Origin: Escherichia coli
Lineage (GTDB): Bacteria > Pseudomonadota > Gammaproteobacteria > Enterobacterales > Enterobacteriaceae
DNA: 64,000 nt
Direction: 5' to 3' (one strand)
Assembly (NCBI RefSeq): GCF_050320075.1
Contig: NZ_CP190019.1
Shown: positions 7,767 through 23,362 of the stretch, piece after piece
Numbering within the stretch: position 1 is the stretch's first letter
How the letters are laid out: every line of letters begins with the position of its first letter
Position numbers and translations under genes: made by a program
The notes under the pieces: generated by a model
What the model was told of the DNA's origin: nothing
Seen by the model: the letters and a program-made list of their open reading frames with translations, nothing else
The model's database searches: none

Positions 7767-8093
7767 ATGACTAAAAATACTCGTTTTTCCCCCGAAGTCC
7801 GTCAGAGGGCGATTCGTATGGTTCTGGAAAGTCAGGGCGAATATGACTCACAGTGGGCGGCAATTTGTTCCATTGCCCCAAAGATTGGCTGTACACCGGA
7901 GACTCTGCGTGTCTGGGTACGCCAGCATGAGCGGGATACCGGAGGCGGTGATGGCGGGCTCACCACCGCTGAACGTCAGCGTCTGAAAGAGCTGGAACGT
8001 GAAAATCGTGAACTGCGCCGCAGTAACGATATCCTTCGCCAGGCTTCCGCTTATTTTGCGAAGGCGGAGTTCGACCGCCTCTGGAAAAAATGA
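7767..8093 (+). CDS. IS629-like OrfA (108 aa)
   Basis: [50 protein letters not shown]… matches IS629/IS1203 OrfA as recalled. Confidence 0.85.
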
Positions 8094-8507
8094 TGCCACT
8101 GCTGGATAAGCTGCGTGAGCAGTACGGGGTCGGACCGCTATGCAGCGAACTGCATATTGCCCCGTCAACGTATTACCACTGTCAGCAACAGCGACATCAT
8201 CCGGATAAACGCAGTGCCCGTGCGCAGCGCGATGACTGGCTGAAGAAAGAGATACAGCGCGTATACGATGAAAATCACAAGGTATACGGTGTGCGTAAAG
8301 TCTGGCGTCAGTTGTTACGGGAAGGTATCAGAGTGGCCAGATGCACTGTGGCACGTCTCATGGCAGTTATGGGACTTGCCGGTGTTCTCCGTGGTAAAAA
8401 GGTCCGTACGACCATCAGCCGGAAAGCCGTTGTCGCAGGCGACCGCGTAAACCGTCAGTTCGTGGCAGAACGTCCTGACCAGTTGTGGGTGGCTGATTCT
8501 ACTTACG
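8090..8507 (+). CDS. IS629-like OrfB, 5' portion (exon 1, interrupted by intron)
   Basis: [20 protein letters not shown]…QLWVADSTY then reading frame enters intron sequence. Confidence 0.75.
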
Positions 8508-9163
8508 GTGTGCCCGGAGTTCAGGGCGGGCATGGATGCTTAAATGAACCGCGAGTCTGTCTGGAATATTGAACCGGTAACTCACGATGAGAAACCCAAC
8601 AATCCCACCGGGTGTGACGGTGGAGAACCTGAGCGGCAGTGACCTGCGGCATGCCCGCAGGGTGATGTAACCCGCTGACAACGGGGATTGAGGCGAGATC
8701 ACTAAGCCGAGATGATCCTCAAGGTTAAGTACTGAAAGGCTGAAGAACATAAACCCGTTAATCCGCCTCTGTGGGTTGAAAACGTCACCACGGCCTACGT
8801 GATCTGACAGGCCGTGCAGGAGGAACTGGCAGTGATACGTAAGCACTGCCGGTCGAAGGTGTTTTGACATGTATGCGAAACACCGGGGCAGCAGCGTCTA
8901 TCACGCTTGCGTTGCTGACTTCTGCCAACTTGCGGCAAGCAAGGATAAAGAGTGCGACGGGCAGCCTCCTCAGTATGCCTGAGTCCAGGCAGGTAAACCG
9001 GGGAAGGTCAGCGACGGATGTTAAGGGGGCATGGCTCCGATGACGCGCTGGCTGGCGGAGCTTCCGTAGTAGTCCGCGATGGGGAAAGCCCATTACATGG
9101 CGAAGGGAAGCAGTTTGAATGTGTTTGCGACGTGAATTAACTGGCCTAACGAGGTGAAGACCT

Positions 9164-10687
9164 TTGATAATCAGCGAAATGCAACGCAAGCTTGCCACAT
9201 GGGCAGCCACCGATCCGTCCCTACGGATTCAACGGCTGCTGCGTCTGATAACACAACCAGAATGGCTGGCTGAAGCGGCGCGGATCACGCTTTCATCAAA
9301 GGGGGCGCATACCCCCGGCGTTGATGGCGTGAACAAAACAATGCTACAGGCCAGACTGGCTGTTGAGCTGCAAATCCTCAGGGATGAATTACTCTCAGGC
9401 CACTACCAGCCCTTGCCCGCCAGACGGGTTTACATCCCTAAAAGCAACGGCAAACTGCGACCACTGGGTATCCCCGCGTTGCGGGATCGTATTGTTCAGC
9501 GGGCCATGCTGATGGCGATGGAGCCGATATGGGAGAGTGATTTTCATACGCTCTCATATGGCTTCCGGCCTGAGCGCAGTGTCCACCACGCGATCCGCAC
9601 GGTGAAATTACAGCTCACAGACTGCGGTGAAACCCGGGGACGCTGGGTGATTGAAGGCGACCTGTCCAGTTACTTCGACACCGTACATCATCGACTGCTG
9701 ATGAAGGCTGTACGCCGCAGGATCAGTGACGCACGTTTCATGACTCTGCTGTGGAAAACCATCAAGGCGGGACATATCGATGTCGGTCTCTTTCGGGCGG
9801 CCAGTGAAGGTGTGCCACAGGGCGGTGTTATATCGCCGCTATTATCGAACATCATGCTGAATGAGTTCGATCAATACCTGCATGAGCGCTACCTGAGCGG
9901 GAAAGCCAGAAAAGATCGGTGGTACTGGAATAACAGTATCCAACGGGGCCGAAGTACGGCGGTCAGAGAAAACTGGCAGTGGAAACCCGCGGTGGCGTAC
10001 TGCCGCTATGCCGATGATTTTGTCCTCATCGTCAAAGGCACCAAAGCACAGGCGGAAGCCATCAGGGAGGAGTGTCGGGGTGTGCTCGAAGGCAGTCTGA
10101 AACTCAGGCTGAACATGGATAAGACTAAAATCACCCATGTTAATGACGGCTTTATCTTTCTGGGGCACAGGATCATTCGCAAACGCAGTCGTTATGGCGA
10201 GATGCGAGTGGTCTCAACGATCCCGCAGGAGAAAGCCAGAAACTTCGCCGCATCGCTGACAGCACTGTTATCAGGCAACTACAGTGAAAGCAAAGTCGAT
10301 ATGGCTGAACAACTCAACCGAAAACTGAAAGGCTGGGCCATGTTCTATCAGTTCGTTGATTTTAAGGCCAAAGTCTTCAGTTATATCGACCGTGTCGTGT
10401 TCTGGAAGCTGGCTCACTGGCTGGCCCGCAAATACCGTACAGGTATCGCTTCCCTGATGAGGTGGTGGTGTAAATCACCGAAACCGGGTCAGAGTAAAAC
10501 GTGGGTTTTATTTGGTAAAACCAATCACGGCAAGCTCAGCGGCGAAATACTGTACCGGTTGGTGGGGCAAGGCAAGAAGCTGTTCCGCTGGCGGCTACCC
10601 GAAGGTAATCCCTATCTGAGGACGGAGACCAGAAACACGTATACATCGCGCTTTACAGAAGTGGCAATGGCGTTCGCCAGCATTTAA
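9164..10687 (+). CDS. Group II intron-encoded reverse transcriptase/maturase (507 aa)
   Basis: RT motifs including …AYCRYADDFVLIV… (YADD), maturase-like C-terminal region. Confidence 0.85.
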   Translation: MIISEMQRKLATWAATDPSLRIQRLLRLITQPEWLAEAARITLSSKGAHTPGVDGVNKTMLQARLAVELQILRDELLSGHYQPLPARRVYIPKSNGKLRPLGIPALRDRIVQRAMLMAMEPIWESDFHTLSYGFRPERSVHHAIRTVKLQLTDCGETRGRWVIEGDLSSYFDTVHHRLLMKAVRRRISDARFMTLLWKTIKAGHIDVGLFRAASEGVPQGGVISPLLSNIMLNEFDQYLHERYLSGKARKDRWYWNNSIQRGRSTAVRENWQWKPAVAYCRYADDFVLIVKGTKAQAEAIREECRGVLEGSLKLRLNMDKTKITHVNDGFIFLGHRIIRKRSRYGEMRVVSTIPQEKARNFAASLTALLSGNYSESKVDMAEQLNRKLKGWAMFYQFVDFKAKVFSYIDRVVFWKLAHWLARKYRTGIASLMRWWCKSPKPGQSKTWVLFGKTNHGKLSGEILYRLVGQGKKLFRWRLPEGNPYLRTETRNTYTSRFTEVAMAFASI

Positions 10688-10692
10688 ATGGA

Positions 10693-10726
10693 GAGCCGGA
10701 TGCGCTGAAAGGTGCACGTCCGGTTC
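10693..10726 (+). ncRNA. Group II intron domain V (catalytic hairpin)
   Basis: GAGCCGGATGCGCTGAAAGGTGCACGTCCGGTTC fits the domain V consensus; lies 51 nt upstream of the intron 3' end. Confidence 0.7.
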
Positions 10727-10749
10727 GGGGAGGAGAGGCAGGGAAATAG

Positions 10750-11250
<501 letters not shown>

Positions 11251-12497: not shown

Positions 12498-13887
12498 TCA
12501 CCTTTTACCAAAGATGGCCTCAGAGCTTCCCTGAAGCTTTATCATGGCTTCAAGTAGGTCATCTTCGTTCAGTGAGCGCTGAGATTTGTTGATGCTAGGG
12601 GCGTGCCGTCTGCGGGAAGGCTCATCACCAGAACAAGGTAACGATTGTGAGCGATTATTGTCCCGTTTTCTCTGGACCTGACGGGCAACATCCAACACAT
12701 GGCCAAGTCTCTTGTTATCTACAATGGCGACGGGATCAACCTCAGAAAGCCGGTCATAGGTGGAGTAGGGCAGCAGCACGCCATTTAGTCGCAGCTCCTT
12801 ATGTCCGTCAGGATAATGCCAGACATCAATATACTTGCCGATGGCTCTTCGACTGTACTCGTTGTCCTCAATCAGATAGAGCATTTTATCGTATTGTACA
12901 GTCAGATTTTTTGATACCCGGCGAGGCTCTCGCTAGGTAAATTCTGCATCAAGGTCATCGTCTAATGCCAGCGGCCGGTGCGCGTTAAAATCATGCAAGG
13001 GTTCTTTGGCAAAGCGCCGGTTATAATCCTTCTGCAAATGCATTGGCCGCTTCTATTGTACAGATCCCCTTAAGCCTGAGCTCCTTAACGAGTCGGTCCT
13101 GAAGTGTCAAATGAGCACGTTCAACGCGGCCTTTTGCCTGGCTGGTTTCAGCACACAAAGGAGTAATATTAAGGCAGCGCATGGCCCTGGCAAACTGGGT
13201 TTCGCCGGGGCCGGTGGTGGCGTGCTTATTATTGACTCTGAATACGCTGGCTTTATCGCTGTAGAGGATCATCGGTTTACCGTATTTCTCGATATAGCCA
13301 CGTGTAGCTTCAAAATAGGTAAATGTGGACTCAGATTTCACAAACAGCAGGTGCATCAGGCGACTGGTGGCATCGTCAACATAGACCAGGGCAGAACAGG
13401 GTCGACCCCGGTTTTCAAACCAGTGGTGGTCGCAGCCATCAATTTGTATCAGCTCGCCAGTACAAGGACGCCGGTAACGAGGCTGATGAATTTTCGGTGC
13501 GCGTTGTCTGCGGGGAATCCAGAGTCCGGCCTTTATCATGAGACGTCGGATGGTTTCCTTTCCAAGGACCAGACCGTGAACTTCCTCCAGCTTTTCCCGC
13601 GCTAGCGTGGGGCCAAAATCACGGTAGTGCTCCCGGATTATACTGAGTGCCTGATCTGTCAGTGACGCTGGCAACAGACGGTTACCAGTGCGGCCACGAC
13701 TCTGGTTGTTCATGCCAAGCGGCCCATACTGGCGATAACGTTTGAGCAGACGGCTGCAATGACGTGGCGTGATGCCCAGCATTTCGGCAGCCTGTCTAGG
13801 ACGGATATTGCGATCGATGACATCCTGAAGGATTTTGAGGCGATTGATTTCTTTCACGGTGAACATTCCGGCGTCATTTATAGCCAT
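12498..13887 (-). pseudogene. DDE transposase pseudogene (ISNCY/IS1202-like; family uncertain), frameshifted
   Basis: 288-aa ORF (13021..13887) with HTH N-terminus and integrase-core region, followed out of frame by a 128-aa ORF (12498..12884); together about the size of one transposase. Confidence 0.45.
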
Positions 13888-14194
13888 AGAAAACTCCTCA
13901 TCAGGAAAAAGTGAGTCGTTGTCTAGACATAGGGATCTGAGAAACTATAGCCTGGACATTCCTAATGAGCCACAAATAGACATTAGCATTGAGCCTCTAC
14001 AATGTTTGTGCGCACAATCTATCTTATGTTAAATAACATTGAATATTAACTTACTTCATGAAGCTTACTGCTTCTATTTCCACTTCTTTTTCTTATTAAT
14101 CGCTCCCCTAATCCACGCATTCATCTGCTCTACAGGCTCTAAAATATTTTTTCTGAGTACTGAGCACAAACTGCTCCATAAAAAACAGACCACA

Positions 14195-14350
14195 AGTTTG
14201 GGCATGATACTGATGTAGTCACGTTTTATTGTTTTCATGAAGCTCTCTGCTATTCCATTACTCACCGGACTCCGCACCGCCGTGTTCTTCGATTTAAGTC
14301 CCAACATCCGAGCGAACTGGCGTGTTTCATTAACCCGGTAGTCAGAGTCA
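14195..14350 (-). mobile_element. IS2-like fragment (about 150 bp homologous to the IS2 orfB 3' region)
   Basis: Internal comparison: 14200-14350 aligns with 17095-17245 of the intact IS2 in this window (GTTTGGGCATGATACTGATGTAGTCACG…); homology ends abruptly. Confidence 0.5.
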
Positions 14351-14523
14351 GCGGTCGAAAGACCTCCCAGGTAGCTACTCTGCATACCCACTATAATGCA
14401 ACTATTCTCGTGACGTGTGTTTCAGCTCTCCCCCGGCTATGATACGAGATGGTATGGAGAGCCCTTCTGGGGCCACTGCCTGCACCAGATGCAACAGGAC
14501 GCCTGATATGAATGCAATTTCTG

Positions 14524-15717
14524 TCAGGACAGGCGGGTAACTTTCTGTGGCCATGGATCAGGGAATACTCCACCCGACATCCACCACTGAATTTCTTCTT
14601 CAGTCAACAAGCAAAGGGATAAGGCATGTGTAAAATCATTAACTTCAGTGGCATTGCCAATGATAGTCAACTGACAGCAGCGATCGCCAAATCGCCCAGA
14701 GGCTGTGTCGATGTGTCGCTGTAGCGCTGAACGTTCTTCACGAGTTAAATTATTGTCAGTATGTTCCAGTACTCCAGCTTTCCAGTAGCCAATGAGCGCC
14801 AGACTGATGCTTCCTGCTGACTGATTCCAGAGCAGGGCAAGATCATCTCTCCCGGGGAGCCAAAAAAAACCTTTACTGCGATAAACGCCCATGCCCATAA
14901 AGCGGTGACAGGTATCCCATAATCTTTGCGGATGGAATGGCCTGTCGTCCCTGATGACGCGCCATATAAGTTCCTCATTGTTGCACGGAGTATCCATGTT
15001 TCCTACAAGTGCTTCCAGTTCACTGATGAGTAACTCAACACGGTCAAAATTGTAGTCCGGGATCGCCAGTAATGTGCTCAGTTCAATATTTCCCCATGAT
15101 ACCGCGAGCACATCCACGGAGGGGTTAAGTGGGTGTATGGCTTTTGCCACAGCGGAGATAATGTCAAAGGGCAGGCGGTCATTTCTGGTCAGCAGCAGCC
15201 TGTTGCAGAACATGATTTGCTCGGCCAGCAAATTCTCCAGGCCGCGTTTGTTATGCCGGAGATTTTCCTGAAGAGTGGGGATCAGTTTTTTCCCATCATT
15301 GTAATCTTCATGGAGCATGACAGTATCAACGAGTGTTAAAAACGCCTTCAGGCGTACACGTGAATGGCGACGCAGGTATTTGACCAGAGGAAGCGGATGA
15401 CTGCTTCCGGAGGTTTCAATCAGCATCACATCCGGCTTGTTGTGATCAAGCAGGTGGTTAATTGCGAGATCCATCTTTTTGAGGCCTGCGGGGCTGCTGA
15501 TGCTGTCTGCGGTGATACTTACGAAATTATTGTCTTTTGCATCTACAATATCTGTGTTGGCGATCAGCACGCCGTCCACATCCAGTTCGCTCATGTCATT
15601 GACTATGACAGAGACTGAAAGCTGTTTTTCGTGTGCCTGTATGAGCAGGTTTTTCAGCAGAGTGGTTTTCCCTGCGCCGAGGAAGCCATTGAGAATGATG
15701 ACAGATGTTGTTTCCAT
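14524..15717 (-). CDS. COG0523/CobW-like (G3E family) P-loop GTPase, divergent
   Basis: Walker A GFLGAGKTTLL after probable start at internal Met (METTSVIIL, 15717); overall architecture resembles CobW/YjiA-type GTPases; the expected CxCC metal motif appears replaced (SITADSISS). Confidence 0.55.
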   Translation of the reverse strand: METTSVIILNGFLGAGKTTLLKNLLIQAHEKQLSVSVIVNDMSELDVDGVLIANTDIVDAKDNNFVSITADSISSPAGLKKMDLAINHLLDHNKPDVMLIETSGSSHPLPLVKYLRRHSRVRLKAFLTLVDTVMLHEDYNDGKKLIPTLQENLRHNKRGLENLLAEQIMFCNRLLLTRNDRLPFDIISAVAKAIHPLNPSVDVLAVSWGNIELSTLLAIPDYNFDRVELLISELEALVGNMDTPCNNEELIWRVIRDDRPFHPQRLWDTCHRFMGMGVYRSKGFFWLPGRDDLALLWNQSAGSISLALIGYWKAGVLEHTDNNLTREERSALQRHIDTASGRFGDRCCQLTIIGNATEVNDFTHALSLCLLTEEEIQWWMSGGVFPDPWPQKVTRLS

Positions 15718-16451
15718 ATCAGCAGTACACCAGTTAGTTAGCGAGGAAGGCGCTTGGTGGTACAAAGAGCATCCGGATTGAATCGCATAACGTCGACGGG
15801 AGTTGTTGTCGTTTTTCCTGTGAGGTCTCAACCTGCCACAGAACGCACCGGACTTATTGGTATTTAGTCTCCATCAGCATAATTATCACCATTTTTATCT
15901 CCGGGGGAAGATTTGTTCTGAACAGGAGTGGGAGGTGTGACCTCCTGAAAGTAATTACAGATTGCTAGTTGTTGTATTTTTATTCGAATATGTCTCTTCG
16001 TATCAGTGATAGCACCTAGATAAAGTATATTCCGGGAGCGTTATCTGTTCTAGATATCAGAGAGTCAGTCATTTGTAAAAAAGAGAGCTGCATCATTCTA
16101 TTTTTCCTGTCTATTCACCCTGTTGTCGTATCTAAAAGACATCCGTTCCGAGGATGTCGGGCACCCGTTCTGTACTAAGATACATAGCTTTTGGGTCTGC
16201 ACTATTTGGAACCGACAGAAGTCTGTCTGTGATATCCGCATTTTTCTGTGTGCGATATATTCCGAAAAACTTCAAACCACTTAAAAGAGGTGTTTCCGGA
16301 GGATAAGTTCGACCAGGGAATAGTGTTTCCTGGTAAGTGTGGCGGAGCCAGTTCACCAGGAGTATCTTTCTTATCCAGTTATACTGGATTTTATTAGATG
16401 ATCACCCTACCCTGCAGCAGTACGCTGACGGTGTTTTTTTGGAGAACCATT

Positions 16452-16928
16452 ATGAATAACGTCATCTTTGATTGGTATTTATCTAGGCAAAAATTCATTC
16501 AACGTCCACTGCCAAGATGCAACAGGCAGAGTCCTTAACTGTCAGAATCCAAGTGCTCGAAATTATTCGAATTCCTTACTAATTCCTCCTACACAACTAT
16601 TGTTATGGAAGCTTGCGAAGATGCTCACTATATGGCACGGAAATTTTCGGAAATGCGTCATAAAACAAAGCTAATACCTCCTCATTTTGTCCAACCCTTC
16701 GTTAAAATTAATAAAAATGATTTCTTTGAGGCTGAAACCATATGTGAAGTTACATCAAGCCATCAATGAGATTTGTAGCATTAGGAGCTGAATCCCAGCA
16801 GAGGATTCCACTTTTCATCCGTCGTTGACAATGGCCTTGAAAAACGCCGTTACTCACCGTTCTCCTTCACGGTAATACGCAGTTATAGTTGCAGAGCAAT
16901 GTAATGGATCTTTTATATTAAGAAATTG
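16452..16928 (+). pseudogene. IS110-family transposase N-terminal remnant (frameshifted, truncated by IS2)
   Basis: IGIYLGKNSFNVHCQDATGRVL… then, in another frame, VMEACEDAHYMARKFSEMRHKTKLIPPHFVQP…; typical IS110-family N-terminus. Confidence 0.45.
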
Positions 16929-16939
16929 TGGATTTGCCC

Positions 16940-17845
16940 CTATATTTCCAGACATCTGTTATCACTTAACCCATTACAAGCCCGCTGCCGCAGATATTCC
17001 CGTGGCGAGCGATAACCCAGCGCACTATGCGGATGCCATTCGTTATAATGCTCGAACGCCTCTGCAAGGTTCTTTGCTGCCGTTAACCCGTCTGGTTTGG
17101 GCATGATACTGATGTAGTCACGCTTTATCGTTTTCACGAAGCTCTCTGCTATGCCGTTACTCTCCGGACTCCGCATCGCCGTGTTCTTCGGTTCAAGCCC
17201 CAACATCCGGGCAAACTGCCGTGTTTCATTAGCCCGGTAGCATGAACCATTATCCGTCAGCCACTCTACTGGAGACGCCGGAAGCTCGTTGCCGAAGCGG
17301 CGTTCCACCGCTCCCAGCATGACGTCCTGTACTGTTTCACTGTTGAAGCCGCCCGTAGTAACCGCCCAGTGCAGTGCCTCACGGTCACAGCAGTCCAGCG
17401 CGAACGTGACTCGCAGTTTTTCTCCGTTATCACAGCGGAACTCGAACCCGTCAGAGCACCATCGCTGATTACTTTCTTTCACAGCCACTCTGCCTGTATG
17501 TGCCCGTTTCGATGGCGGTACAGCAGGTTTTCGCTCAAGCAACAGCGCATTCTGGCGCATGATCCGGTAAACACGTTTGGCATTGATCGCAGGCATACCA
17601 TCAAGTTCTGCCTGTCTGCGAAGCAGCGCCCATACCCGACGATAACCATACGTGGGCAGCTCTCCGATAACATGGTGTATACGGAGAAGCACATCCGTAT
17701 CATCAGTGTGACGACTGCGGCGGCCATCCATCCAGTCATCGGTTCGTCTGAGAATGACGTGCAACTGCGCACGCGACACCCGGAGACAACGGCTGACTAA
17801 GCTTACTCCCCATCCCCGGGCAATAAGGGCGCGTGCGCTATCCAC
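16940..17845 (-). CDS. insD: IS2 OrfB (InsD, 301 aa)
   Basis: [46 protein letters not shown]… with DDE integrase core. Confidence 0.85.
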
Positions 17846-18221
17846 TTTTTTGCCCGTCCATATTCAACGGCTTCTTTGATTCTTTGAGGAGTTCATTTTC
17901 CATCGTTTTCTTGCCGAGCAGGCGCTGGAGTTCTTTAATCTGCTTCATGGCGGCAGCAAGTTCAGAGGCAGGAACAACCTGTTCTCCGGCGGCGACAGCA
18001 GTAAGACTTCCTTCCTGGTATTGCTTACACCAGAGAAATAACTGGCTGGCTGCTACACCATGTTGCCGGGCAACGAGGGAGACCGTCATCCCCGGTTCAA
18101 AGCTCTGCTGAACAATTGCGATCTTTTCCTGTGTGGTACGCCGTCTGCGTTTCTCCGGCCCTAAGACATCAATCATCTGTTCTCCAATGACTAGTCTAAA
18201 AACTAGTATTAAGACTATCAC
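17838..18221 (-). CDS. insC: IS2 OrfA (InsC) with altered C-terminus caused by 8-bp insertion
   Basis: [40 protein letters not shown]… but ends …[17 protein letters not shown] instead of the recalled canonical …[14 protein letters not shown]…. Confidence 0.7.
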
Positions 18222-18787
18222 TTATTTAAGTGATACTGGTTGTCTGGAGATTCAGGGGGCCAGTCTAAGGTGCACGAATCCTAGAGGCAGAATGTTTCTC
18301 CACATGCTTGTGGAGAAACCGCCGCATTTTGCCCGTTCTGTACGATACACCGTAGCCAGAGATAAGATATTCTGTTGCTGTATGCTACATACATTACACT
18401 ATACGAAATCAGGTCTGTTCAATCAGTAAGGAAATAAACGGACAAACGTTATGTAACCCAGACAGAGATATATTGTCTGGGAAAATAGTGGCTTTTGTGG
18501 CGAAAACTAGTAAAACAGCAACCCGAACCACTTGATGTGCATCGTTTTTGATTATTCCCGTATACTCTTGCAGAAGGAGTTCTCCGTCGGGCTACTGTCA
18601 TGGTTAATGCGGGGAATATGGCGACAATACAACATACCTAAAAGAGTAATGGACAGATGAAGCGGTTTATTCATTTCCCATGATTCTGAGTACCTACCAA
18701 GTCTGAGTAACCACTTTTATACTTTTAATTTTCGTTCATTTAGCTATCGTTTAATTATTATCACATAGGATTCTGCCGTTTTTAACA

Positions 18788-19096
18788 ATGCAGGATAATA
18801 AGATGAAAAAAATGTTATTTTCTGCCGCTCTGGCAATGCTTATTACAGGATGTGCTCAACAAACGTTTACTGTTGGAAACAAACCGACAGCAGTAACACC
18901 AAAGGAAACCATCACTCATCATTTCTTCGTTTCGGGAATTGGACAAGAGAAAACTGTTGATGCAGCCAAAATTTGTGGCGGTGCAGAAAATGTTGTTAAA
19001 ACAGAAACTCAGCAAACATTCGTAAATGGATTGCTCGGTTTTATCACTTTTGGCATCTATACTCCGCTGGAAGCCCGGGTATATTGCTCACAATAG
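18788..19096 (+). CDS. iss: Iss (increased serum survival; Bor-family lipoprotein)
   Basis: MQDNKMKKMLFSAALAMLITGCAQQTF… lipobox LITGC; about 100 aa; classic ColV-plasmid gene. Confidence 0.85.
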   Translation: MQDNKMKKMLFSAALAMLITGCAQQTFTVGNKPTAVTPKETITHHFFVSGIGQEKTVDAAKICGGAENVVKTETQQTFVNGLLGFITFGIYTPLEARVYCSQ

Positions 19097-19955
19097 TTGC
19101 CCATCGATATGGGGAGCTCATCTGCACTGTTCATTAATATACTTCTGGGCTCCCTACAGTTGTTTTTGCATAGTGATAAGCCTCTCTCTGAGGGAGGAAA
19201 TAATCCTGTTCAGCGATGTCTGCCAGTCGGGGGGGCTGCATTATCCACGCCCGAGGCGGTGGTGGCTTCACGCGGGGATGGGCAGATTGATCTGATATGC
19301 AACCGACGACGACCAGCGGCAACATCATCACGCAGAGCTTCATTTTCAGATTTGGGCCACCTTTTGATTTCTCGTTTAACTTTTGCAGTCACCAGACTGT
19401 GATTTATTTTAACAAATCAATAGCTTTCATAAAATTCTCGAAGCTGAAAGCTTAACTGAACCAACCAGCCTGGCTGGTGTTTTCTAAAGACAAAAAGGCC
19501 ATCAGCAAAACACTGATAGTCTGAATCACCTTTATCAATCATGTATGAAGAAAATATGCGCAATTAGTTGACAGTGATTATCATTTTCATTAAAAAGAGC
19601 GCGTAGCATTCTTATTTCATGAGGAAATTTACCCGCCAACAACCTGAGTAGCGAAAGCTGTTCATCCCCAATATTTTTGCTGGCGGGTTCTTTTTTCTAC
19701 TGTCCTCCTCCCCAGAGGAAGCATTCCCATTAATCATTACTGGCGAGGAGGCAAGAGAAAAAGTCGGTTCTTTGTCCCTAAATAACAGCATCATTTCAGT
19801 CCATGCAAAATCTGATTTACCAGCTCACATAATAACCTGATGATACACAGTGTAAGTTCACAGAGATATTGCAATTGCCTCCGGATAAGTAAGGGGAGAT
19901 TGCACTATGCAAATGCAGCACCTGAGGTTGGCTATCCTAAGCAGCCGATTATGCG

Positions 19956-21011
19956 TTGAGGCTTTCAGTGATGGCTGATATAGCAACAATGAGAATGAAG
20001 GCTCTGCACTTCTGGGATAAACACGGTATTTCTGCAGCTTCTGAAGCCTTTGGCGTATCCTGCCGCACGCTTTACTGGTGGCGTCAGTTACTGATCAAGG
20101 GAGGACCTGAGGGGCTAATCCCGCACAGTAAGGCACCTCTGGTGCGACGAAAAAAGCACTGGCATCCCGATGTGCTGAAAGAGATTCGACGCCTCAGGAC
20201 AGAGCTGCCGAACCTCGGTAAAGAGCAGATTTTTGTTCGCCTGAAGCCCTGGTGCGCATAACGCCATCAGACCTGCCCGAGTGTTTCCACCATCGGCAGA
20301 ATGATCGCCACCGCACACGATAAAATGCGGATGATACCAGTACGTCTGAGCTCGCGGGGTAAGGCTCTGCTTGTCAAAAAGCGAACCACCCCCCCCCCCC
20401 CCCGCAGGCCAAAGCACTACCGTCCGGTAAAGACAGGAGAGCTCATTGGGATGGACGCCATTGAGCTCAGAATGGGTGAAATGCGTCGCTATATCATTAC
20501 CATGATCGACGAACACAGCGATTATGTACTGGCGCTGGCTGTGCCGTCGCTCAACAGTGATATCGTCAATCACTTTTTCAGCCGTGCAGCCCGGCTGTTC
20601 CCTGTCGGTATCAGCCAGATCATCACAGATAACGGGAAAGAGTTCCTGGGAAGCTTTGACAAAACGCTGCAGGAAGCCGCCATCAAACACCTCTGGACCT
20701 ATCCCTACACGCCAAAAATGAACGCTATCTGTGAACGTTTTAACCGGGCATTAAGAGAGCAATTCATTGAATTTAATGAAATTTTACTCTTTGAGGATCT
20801 GGCGTTGTTTAACCTGAAACTGGCGGAATATCTGGCGCTGTATAACAGCAAAAGACTCCACAAGGCGCTCGCACTAACGACGCCCGTGGAATATATTTTA
20901 AAAGAGAACAAAAATTGCAATATGTGGTGGACCCATACACAGCAAACGCACAGGCCGCCCCGGTTGGGTAGATATGTGGGATGGCTGGTTCAGACTTCAG
21001 GATATGGTTGA
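19956..21011 (+). pseudogene. Transposase-like gene (HTH + integrase core), split into two ORFs, with a 15-C homopolymer
   Basis: ORFs 19956..20261 and 20301..21011; second has rve-like core (…DNGKEF…YTPKMNAICERFN…); poly-C at 20389..20403 encodes PPPP. Confidence 0.45.
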
Positions 21012-21782
21012 GGCTGGTGATGAAGTCTCTTTATCAGGAGATCTGATCAAGAGACAGCCGCGCAGGGGGATTCACTATGCTGGATTCTTTTAACAAATTC
21101 TCCGCTAACCAAAAAATAGACTTTTTGCATTCGTAAATGCGTTAAGAGATAATTTTTAAAGTTCCATCAATCTCCCGGCCAGTTCGTCTCGCGGCATTAC
21201 TCACTATCCGCACAACTTCAGTAAGATCATGACTTTTTCAATCGTTATCTGTTGACCAAGCTTTGAAACCACTAGCGTCCCGTCAACCTGACCTGGAATC
21301 GTCGAGAACCGCCCATAGTTGTGAATTGGCTAGAGTGTGATGGAAAGCAACGCTAAACGACCTAGTCACACATTCTCTTTTCCCTAACAATGACCATTTA
21401 GTGAAATAACGTATCCAAAATGATGACGTGAAAGCCTGATACTGGCAGCGAAAAGCCGAAAAAACTCACCTGGTCAGGAGCAAAAATCGGATTATTCGCC
21501 AACAGCGTAATATCAGCAGTAGTTCTCGACACGCTTGCGCTATAGACAGAGGATGAAACGCTGCTGGTCGGAGTTCTCTATACATTTTTGGCGACGGCAG
21601 AACCGCTCACCAATGCCTTAACGTCTATCAGCCTTCCGGTGAGTTGGAACAGCATGCTCAGCGTTTGCAAGATATTCTCCACGGTCTGTAGCAGCGTAGG
21701 TTTCAATTTAAATATCCCCAGATAGCCCTCTGGGAGCTTCCCTTTTTATTAAGTTTTAATTACCGTTGCAATAGTTAAATGA

Positions 21783-21805
21783 TATTGGTAATTATTATCA
21801 TTAGC
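21783..21805. promoter_or_regulatory. Putative Fur box upstream of iroB
   Basis: TATTGGTAATTATTATCATTAGC resembles the GATAATGATAATCATTATC Fur consensus; iro loci are iron-regulated. Confidence 0.4.
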
Positions 21806-22246
21806 ATTTGTGTCTGTGTTGTTTCTGGTAAGGCTGAAAGGGAACAAACATCGCCTGTACAACGGCGTTTTTACTTACAGACCAGCGAAGGCGAGACTAT
21901 CAGGATGATGCATCGTGTGTCTAAGAAATCACGGTTCTTTCCAGATTCGTTGTTCGGTCTAACACTGCACAAATGCGTCAGAACATCCCGGCGTAGCTGT
22001 CCGACGCCATTTGGGCTGTTCAACAGGACAATGGCGCGTAAGCGTTAATGGAAGTGGGGATACGGAGTTCCCTGTTCACCTGTGTATGTCACGGAAAAGT
22101 CTCTGACTGAGCTGTCCATAACGCTGGTGAAGCACAAATGGCGCAGCATCTGGTAAAGCAGGTTTAACGAAAAGTCGTGTCCTGCTGCTGGCATATGAGT
22201 GCGTCGACTGCCTGATTTAGATCGTCAAGCGGAGAGGGATTTTCTC

Positions 22247-23362
22247 ATGCGTATTTTGTTTGTAGGCCCGCCTCTCTATGGGCTGTTGTATCCTGTGCTG
22301 TCTCTGGCGCAGGCATTTCGCGTTAACGGTCATGAAGTGCTGATCGCCAGTGGAGGACAATTCGCACAAAAAGCGGCAGAGGCCGGGTTGGTGGTGTTTG
22401 ACGCCGCACCCGGTCTGGATTCCGAAGCTGGTTACCGCCACCATGAGGCACAGCGGAAAAAAAGTAATATCGGAACCCAAATGGGCAACTTCTCATTCTT
22501 CAGCGAAGAAATGGCCGACCATCTGGTGGAGTTTGCCGGACACTGGCGGCCTGACCTCATCATCTACCCTCCGCTCGGAGTCATCGGGCCGCTGATTGCC
22601 GCCAAATATGATATACCGGTCGTGATGCAAACCGTAGGCTTCGGCCATACCCCCTGGCATATCAAGGGTGTAACGCGTTCGCTCACGGACGCCTATCGTC
22701 GCCACAATGTGGGGGCCACACCACGTGATATGGCCTGGATCGACGTAACACCGCCGAGTATGAGCATTCTGGAAAACGACGGTGAACCCATTATTCCGAT
22801 GCAGTACGTCCCGTATAACGGTGGCGCGGTGTGGGAACCATGGTGGGAGAGAAGGCCCGAGCGTAAACGTCTGCTGGTGAGTCTCGGCACTGTCAAACCG
22901 ATGGTTGACGGCCTTGATCTAATCGCCTGGGTTATGGATTCTGCCAGTGAGGTCGATGCCGAGATCATCCTGCATATTTCAGCCAATGCGCGGTCCGATT
23001 TGCGCTCGCTGCCGTCAAATGTTCGCCTGGTTGACTGGATACCCATGGGTGTCTTCCTCAACGGCGCAGATGGTTTCATTCATCATGGCGGAGCAGGCAA
23101 TACCCTGACAGCGCTACACGCTGGTATTCCACAAATCGTCTTCGGCCAGGGAGCCGATCGCCCGGTAAATGCCCGCGTTGTTGCCGAACGCGGCTGCGGG
23201 ATTATCCCTGGCGACGTCGGCCTGTCGAGTAACATGATCAATGCTTTCCTCAACAATCGCTCACTTCGCAAAGCCTCTGAAGAGGTAGCAGCGGAAATGG
23301 CGGCGCAACCCTGCCCAGGTGAAGTGGCGAAAAGCCTGATCACAATGGTACAGAAAGGGTAA
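22247..23362 (+). CDS. iroB: IroB, enterobactin C-glucosyltransferase
   Basis: MRILFVGPPLYGLLYPVLSLAQAFRVNGHEVLIASGG… GT-family fold; first gene of iroBCDEN. Confidence 0.9.
   Translation: MRILFVGPPLYGLLYPVLSLAQAFRVNGHEVLIASGGQFAQKAAEAGLVVFDAAPGLDSEAGYRHHEAQRKKSNIGTQMGNFSFFSEEMADHLVEFAGHWRPDLIIYPPLGVIGPLIAAKYDIPVVMQTVGFGHTPWHIKGVTRSLTDAYRRHNVGATPRDMAWIDVTPPSMSILENDGEPIIPMQYVPYNGGAVWEPWWERRPERKRLLVSLGTVKPMVDGLDLIAWVMDSASEVDAEIILHISANARSDLRSLPSNVRLVDWIPMGVFLNGADGFIHHGGAGNTLTALHAGIPQIVFGQGADRPVNARVVAERGCGIIPGDVGLSSNMINAFLNNRSLRKASEEVAAEMAAQPCPGEVAKSLITMVQKG

Follow-up and report, generated by a model that had tools for sequence, protein, structure and literature searches.

The window, by which we mean the whole 64,000-nucleotide stretch of Escherichia coli DNA that was analysed (assembly GCF_050320075.1, contig NZ_CP190019.1), is part of a ColV/ColBM-type IncF virulence plasmid in which an IS2 element adjoins the serum-resistance gene iss. 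Positions 12929-22270 of the window are 99.97% identical to plasmid pT28R-2 (NZ_CP049355.1), the annotation of which lists RepFIB, ompT, a CobW-family gene, this IS2, iss, remnants of phage Rz/Rz1, iroBCDEN, cvi and the colicin B/M genes. The IS2 lies on the minus strand, and its ends were located by pattern search: the element starts with TAGACTGG... at window position 18267 and finishes with ...CAAATCCA at window position 16929. Read in the element sense, TAGACTGGCCCCCTGAATC... opens at 18267 and ...GGGGCAAATCCA closes at 16929, giving a length of 1339 bp, and the terminal inverted repeats of IS2 are present (TAGACTGGCCCC... and ...GGGGCAAATCCA). The element and its borders are as follows, with the extents of the inverted repeats approximate and their 41-bp length taken from PMC3219604.

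18268-18272, minus strand: host flank at IRL, CACCT (element sense)
16929-18267, minus strand: complete IS2, 1339 bp, the allele adjoining iss on ColV-type plasmids
18227-18267, minus strand: IRL (approximate extent), identical to that of K-12 IS2A save for A->G at element position 32
16929-16969, minus strand: IRR (approximate extent), 100% identical to that of K-12 IS2A
16924-16928, minus strand: host flank at IRR, CAATT (element sense)

As the reference for alignment we used K-12 IS2A, a mobile element of 1331 bp (NC_000913.3, 381260-382590); K-12 IS2K is also 1331 bp long (NC_000913.3, 4498181-4499511). When compared to IS2A, 1311 of 1331 aligned positions were identical (98.5%), and the differences consisted of 20 substitutions and one gap of 8 columns. 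The window copy shares with IS2A and IS2K the same IRR, orfA, orfB, A6G motif and HTH_Tnp_1 and rve domains, and its IRL differs by one substitution. Since ends, sequence and domains agree, the element belongs to the IS2 group of the IS3 family, and the two features of IS2 that it lacks, namely the -1 frame relation and a target duplication, are those of a mutated, rearranged copy and not of another family.

A 5-bp target-site duplication was absent from the borders of the element, where CACCT faces CAATT in the duplicated and the intact alleles of this locus alike; in K-12, by comparison, ATTAC is found on both sides of IS2A and CCTTG on both sides of IS2K. Because the two alleles share these flanks, the target duplication was lost, or was never made, before the 8-bp change described below. 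Its absence suggests an old rearrangement (a deletion or recombination at one end) as the phage-derived iss/Rz/Rz1 fragment joined the plasmid.

A pattern search for the ends of IS2 revealed no second complete copy in the window. At window positions 14196-14341, a stretch of 146 bp matches a segment of IS2 orfB (window 17095-17240) with 90% identity; in pT28R-2, PGAP annotates the CDS around it as an incomplete hypothetical protein. Situated 2.6 kb from the complete IS2, this stretch is probably what remains of an older, second IS2-like element.

Reading frames around the 8-bp duplication

The single gap in the alignment corresponds to a tandem duplication of the octamer TCAAAGAA within orfA, the window reading CTCC-TCAAAGAA-TCAAAGAA-GCCG where K-12 reads CTCC-TCAAAGAA-GCCG. 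The same gap appears against IS2A, IS2K and the intact allele of the same locus. The duplication is perfect and lies 20 bases upstream of the A6G slippery site; its placement is unique, with a C preceding and a G following the repeat, so that it slides neither way, and the call is a deterministic result of the alignment rather than a statistical one. The original prediction, made from the letters, had held that the element measures 1339 bp against 1331 bp for IS2 and that a tandem duplication of 8 bp, placed at 17873-17885, accounts for the excess. Both points were borne out, the first by the lengths of IS2A and IS2K and the second by the pairwise alignment with IS2A, in which the reference is without the extra 8 bp; the predicted span falls inside the 16-bp pair of repeats. 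The features that bear on translation are:

17838-18176, minus strand: mutant orfA, 112 codons plus TAG; its translation matches HTH_Tnp_1 (E = 2e-18)
18027-18029, minus strand: codon of the R50C change (C->T), numbered after W49/K51 in PMC3219604
17872-17887, minus strand: tandem duplication, the octamer twice, element positions 381-396
17845-17851, minus strand: A6G slippery motif, unchanged in sequence, now read as CAA AAA AGT
16940-17845, minus strand: orfB, 301 codons, uninterrupted, in the +1 frame relative to orfA

We examined the frames by translating both alleles and simulating shifts at the A-run. In K-12 IS2, orfA (121 aa) occupies frame 0 and orfB frame -1, and a -1 shift at A AAA AAG produces the 409-aa OrfAB. 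In the window, orfA is read as ...GAA TCA AAG AAG CCG TTG AAT ATG GAC GGG CAA AAA AGT GGA TAG, frame 0 ending at a TAG two codons beyond the A-run, and orfB has been moved from the -1 to the +1 frame by the 8-bp insertion. In this copy, a -1 shift leads back into the former orfA frame, from which only an OrfA-like product of 124 aa results; a +1 shift, or the loss of one A, gave an uninterrupted 411-aa OrfAB-like fusion in the simulation. The window copy thus differs from K-12 IS2 in the 8-bp duplication, the +1 position of orfB, the length of OrfA (112 vs. 121 aa) and the R50C change, in addition to the missing target duplication.

OrfA is altered only from residue 100 on, and both the helix-turn-helix (HTH) and the leucine-zipper-like motif are kept; in IS2 OrfA the former has been placed at residues 30-51 and the latter, a coiled coil or zipper-like motif, at residues 73-100 (PMC3219604). 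The R50C change adjoins W49 in the putative recognition helix. OrfB matches Pfam rve (E = 4e-19), rve_3 and HTH_21, and its gene shows 18 nucleotide differences from K-12 InsD, 5 of which change an amino acid.

The C-terminus of OrfA quoted in the original prediction was identical to the translated sequence, and the simulation upheld its claim that a -1 shift at the A6G site no longer leads into orfB. Its broader claim, that this copy is probably unable to make OrfAB, is supported by the frame arithmetic for the canonical route. As a +1 slip or one lost A would give the 411-aa fusion, the word 'unable' applies to the canonical route only, and as both terminal repeats are intact, the transposase of another IS2 copy could still move the element in principle.

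An engineered IS2 offers a comparison. In the work of Lewis and colleagues (PMC3219604), in which A6G is the slippery window, the frames are fused in an A7G construct, and there, too, a change in base count alters the connection of orfA to orfB. A7G adds one base and fuses the frames permanently, whereas the natural +8 change uncouples them; unlike A7G, the window allele would reach a fused frame by losing one base (A5G).

PGAP labels the corresponding CDS 'IS3 family transposase, frameshifted' in the near-identical pT28R-2, and labels the 1331-bp allele of the same locus an intact 'programmed frameshift' transposase. The copy is therefore already flagged in RefSeq as a frameshifted pseudogene and does not represent a new kind of thing; a literature search returned no paper discussing this duplication.

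Distribution of the duplicated allele

We searched a 101-bp probe spanning the duplication against 5426 complete E. coli genomes. The probe matched 3970 records, about 3767 of them in the canonical form with an 8-base gap, and a stricter cut-off that retained the duplicated form only left 179 records with 196 places (191 on plasmids and 5 on chromosomes). Very small E-value cut-offs served to split the match classes by bit score, and these counts are approximate, within a few records. The weakest of the 179 matches was full-length (101 bp) with one mismatch, and among these 179 duplicated-form matches in complete genomes no single-base indel variants of the A-run were found. In PLSDB, the duplication is carried by 184 plasmids (179 from Escherichia and 5 from Shigella), which are mostly conjugative. 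At the protein level, the exact 112-aa product occurs on at least 1000 contigs, and a longer form of 127 aa with a GTG start has been deposited as 'conserved hypothetical protein within IS2'. The duplicated allele occupies at most 3 places per genome, compared to up to 41 (median 4) for IS2 overall. The duplication is real and not a sequencing error.

At the iss locus, IS2 was found in 477 records, and the duplication was joined to the iss-side flank in 162 of them; about one third of the plasmids with an iss-adjacent IS2 thus carry the duplication and the rest keep the intact 1331-bp allele. An example of the latter is pEC21Z078-123K, in which a 1331-bp IS2 (protein WP_106121298.1) lies at the same site, between the same flanks and with all 18 of the orfB substitutions that set the window copy apart from K-12. 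Over 4063 bp, this plasmid differs from the window by the duplication and the C->T change (R50C) only, its IS2 being without the duplication and retaining Arg50. The iss-adjacent IS2 is a conserved insertion on ColV/ColBM-type plasmids, and the duplication within it is an old feature that is inherited with a plasmid sub-lineage.

Copies at other sites

The occurrence of 1339-bp copies elsewhere could be taken as proof of transposition, and we rejected this reading for strain EC31. The EC31 chromosome (NZ_CP056036.1; L005, 4001-5339) carries a 1339-bp copy inside a lambdoid prophage, where a perfect target duplication, GGTGG, flanks it, and the same site with the same GGTGG is occupied in JKHS006 (NZ_CP147065.1; L014, 1601-2931), and likewise in about ten other records, by an intact IS2 of 1331 bp. 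The EC31 and JKHS006 copies differ in a central tract (positions 239-1001), where EC31 has window-type bases and, among them, the duplication. A 1339-bp copy is also present on a plasmid of EC31. The shared site, the shared GGTGG and the central tract indicate that the duplication arrived in the EC31 prophage by gene conversion and not by transposition.

A second group of copies is found between yacA and cvaA on ColV plasmids, where a 1339-bp IS2 is bordered by an ATCAT target duplication in 23 records, all 23 of which have the 8-bp duplication (for example pMS15052A, NZ_CP082098.1; L010, 3001-4339). These copies have a background of their own (32A, 42-43TT, 1084G, 1092G, 1161G, 1247A, 1277A and 1313G), which is common on chromosomes as a 1331-bp form. 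Since the yacA|cvaA and iss-adjacent copies differ on either side of the duplication, neither is a straightforward transposition product of the other; the two loci share the duplication through recombination between copies, or else one of them is its origin. The window itself is without the yacA|cvaA site, and in pT28R-2 TnAs1, IS26 and blaCTX-M-14 come after yacB.

Two chromosomal copies, one inside ehaB in TL012 (NZ_CP123951.1) and one at the K-12 IS2K site in BS-01 (NZ_CP172816.1), are identical to the window allele. In both of them (TL012: L006, 5003-5010; BS-01: L007, 5003-5011) the flank seen in the window, CAATTTCT(T), directly follows IRR in place of the native bases, which in K-12 are CCTTGTGCT after IS2K and CGGTAACT in yaiT, and BS-01 has an additional T a few bases further on. 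These flanks may reflect contamination of the consensus from a plasmid copy, or an unusual recombination. The accession that follows the BS-01 chromosome belongs to another strain, so BS-01 is probably without a plasmid record. Both copies are unreliable as evidence.

We also rejected plasmid pI66 (LC620533.1; L009, 1578-2990) as a natural revertant with fused frames. Its IS2 combines the duplication with A5G, resulting in one long ORF that is annotated as a 470-aa 'hypothetical protein'; it also shows C5->C4 and T5->T4 within the element and A5->A4 in the flank, and the same insertion in pMS15052A has A6G, C5 and T5. The fused frame of pI66 is, by this comparison, almost certainly a sequencing error. 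For none of the copies examined outside the iss locus, then, do the comparisons firmly establish transposition of an already duplicated element, in keeping with the original prediction.

Origin and activity of the duplicated copy

Taken at its most likely, the allele is the product of an ordinary inactivating frameshift that uncouples orfA from orfB, leaving a non-autonomous relic that travels with the plasmid and that gene conversion now and then carries into other IS2 elements, and we hold this reading with high confidence. The tandem duplication shifts the orfA frame by +2, the ribosome reads the A-run as CAA AAA AGT and stops at TAG after 112 residues, and since orfB has come to lie in the +1 frame, a programmed slip by -1 yields the 124-aa OrfA-like protein and not OrfAB. 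The change of frame is observed, and the element would by the canonical route no longer supply its own transposase. The truncated OrfA keeps its HTH (with R50C) and its dimerisation motif, and orfB and both terminal repeats are intact. The copy is inherited with the plasmid as part of an old, conserved insertion by iss on ColV/ColBM-type IncF plasmids, and the duplication has reached other IS2 copies, with at least one transfer by gene conversion rather than transposition.

A possible, though unlikely, alternative is that the element has been moved as a non-autonomous one by the transposase of intact IS2 copies, in which case the yacA|cvaA insertion would represent transposition of an already duplicated element. 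Both ends of the window copy are intact and E. coli genomes have a median of 4 IS2 places, as given above, and mobilisation in trans is consistent with the background transposition of a null IS2 construct, which was attributed to chromosomal IS2 copies (PMC3219604). The clean ATCAT duplication, together with the 8-bp duplication in 23 of 23 records, would also be expected on this account. However, the yacA|cvaA site may itself be where the duplication arose, its copies differ from the iss-adjacent ones on both sides of the duplication, and the only case that could be resolved, that of EC31, points to gene conversion.

How the octamer came to be repeated can be explained by a replication error or, alternatively, by the footprint of an excised transposon that makes 8-bp target duplications and was once inserted in orfA at TCAAAGAA. 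The repeat is exactly 8 bp long, perfect and without flanking microhomology that would favour replication slippage, as a footprint would be. A footprint of this kind is, however, at odds with excision in bacteria, which usually is imprecise or leaves a single target copy behind. No IS2 interrupted at this site by another element was encountered in passing. Only 20 of the 3970 records matched by the probe were without full coverage of it, and the one inspected (H90) proved to be a truncation. We regard the transposon footprint as improbable.

Even less probable is that the element remains autonomous by producing a low level of the 411-aa OrfAB-like transposase through a +1 event at the A-run. 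Such an event could be a slip of the P-site tRNA-Lys with AGU in the A site, after which reading would continue at GUG, or the loss of one A during transcription. The tRNA-Lys would re-pair fully (AAA to AAA) after a +1 slip, the resulting fusion is uninterrupted, and the yacA|cvaA copies combine a clean 5-bp target duplication with the 8-bp duplication in every one of the 23 records. There is also a precedent for +1 recoding in the IS3 family, namely IS1447 of Firmicutes, which requires a +1 frameshift that occurs via transcriptional slippage at nine A's, at least 7 of which are needed (PMC6211511). In IS1447, as in the window copy, orfB is reached by a +1 shift at an A-run; but IS1447 belongs to a separate subgroup in which the +1 arrangement is ancestral and functional, whereas the window copy is a recent mutation of a -1 element. 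With six A's its A-run falls below the minimum of 7 determined for IS1447 (PMC6211511), and we know of no stimulatory feature for a +1 event here. Further, the 1331-bp allele also occurs at each of the other three loci examined besides yacA|cvaA, a pattern that suggests conversion or mutation in place and not fresh insertions, and the limit of 3 places per genome for the duplicated allele, against 41 for IS2 overall, argues against an active element. In the same very low range of probability, taken jointly with the +1 event, we place a variant in which the truncated OrfA, with HTH and zipper kept, acts from ColV plasmids as a regulator that damps the IS2 copies of the host. If true, the +1 event would make this allele a natural single-mutation switch of an IS3-family element from -1 to +1 recoding.

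Finally, that the eight extra bases are a sequencing or assembly artefact of a normal 1331-bp IS2 can be dismissed with near certainty: public records with errors do exist (the three single-base homopolymer deletions in the element and one in the flank of pI66) and two chromosomal copies have odd flank bases, but the identical duplication recurs in records that many laboratories obtained from many hosts and countries (179 of complete genomes and 184 PLSDB plasmids), an 8-bp repeat that is not a homopolymer is untypical of platform errors, and the resulting C-terminus is present in proteins on at least 1000 contigs.

The inactivating frameshift that we favour matters mainly for annotation, and the RefSeq label 'frameshifted' is right. 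On many ColV/ColBM virulence plasmids, the iss-adjacent IS2 would be a relic, fixed and non-autonomous. Scoring ColV-type plasmids for the duplication, together with R50C, separates them cleanly into sub-lineages and may be useful as a marker. In EC31, as the comparison with JKHS006 shows, gene conversion brought a disabling allele from an IS2 on a plasmid into an intact IS2 on the chromosome, which is one way of silencing an insertion sequence without a new mutation.

Two further features of the window, both placed by analogy with pT28R-2, may be mentioned. A putative IS3-family transposase pseudogene, split by a group II intron with the RT/maturase gene ltrA, would lie at about 7770-11250, and a 3.8-kb gene that carries the label 'anti-phage transmembrane ATPase' in the pT28R-2 annotation would lie at about 39.5-43.4 kb.
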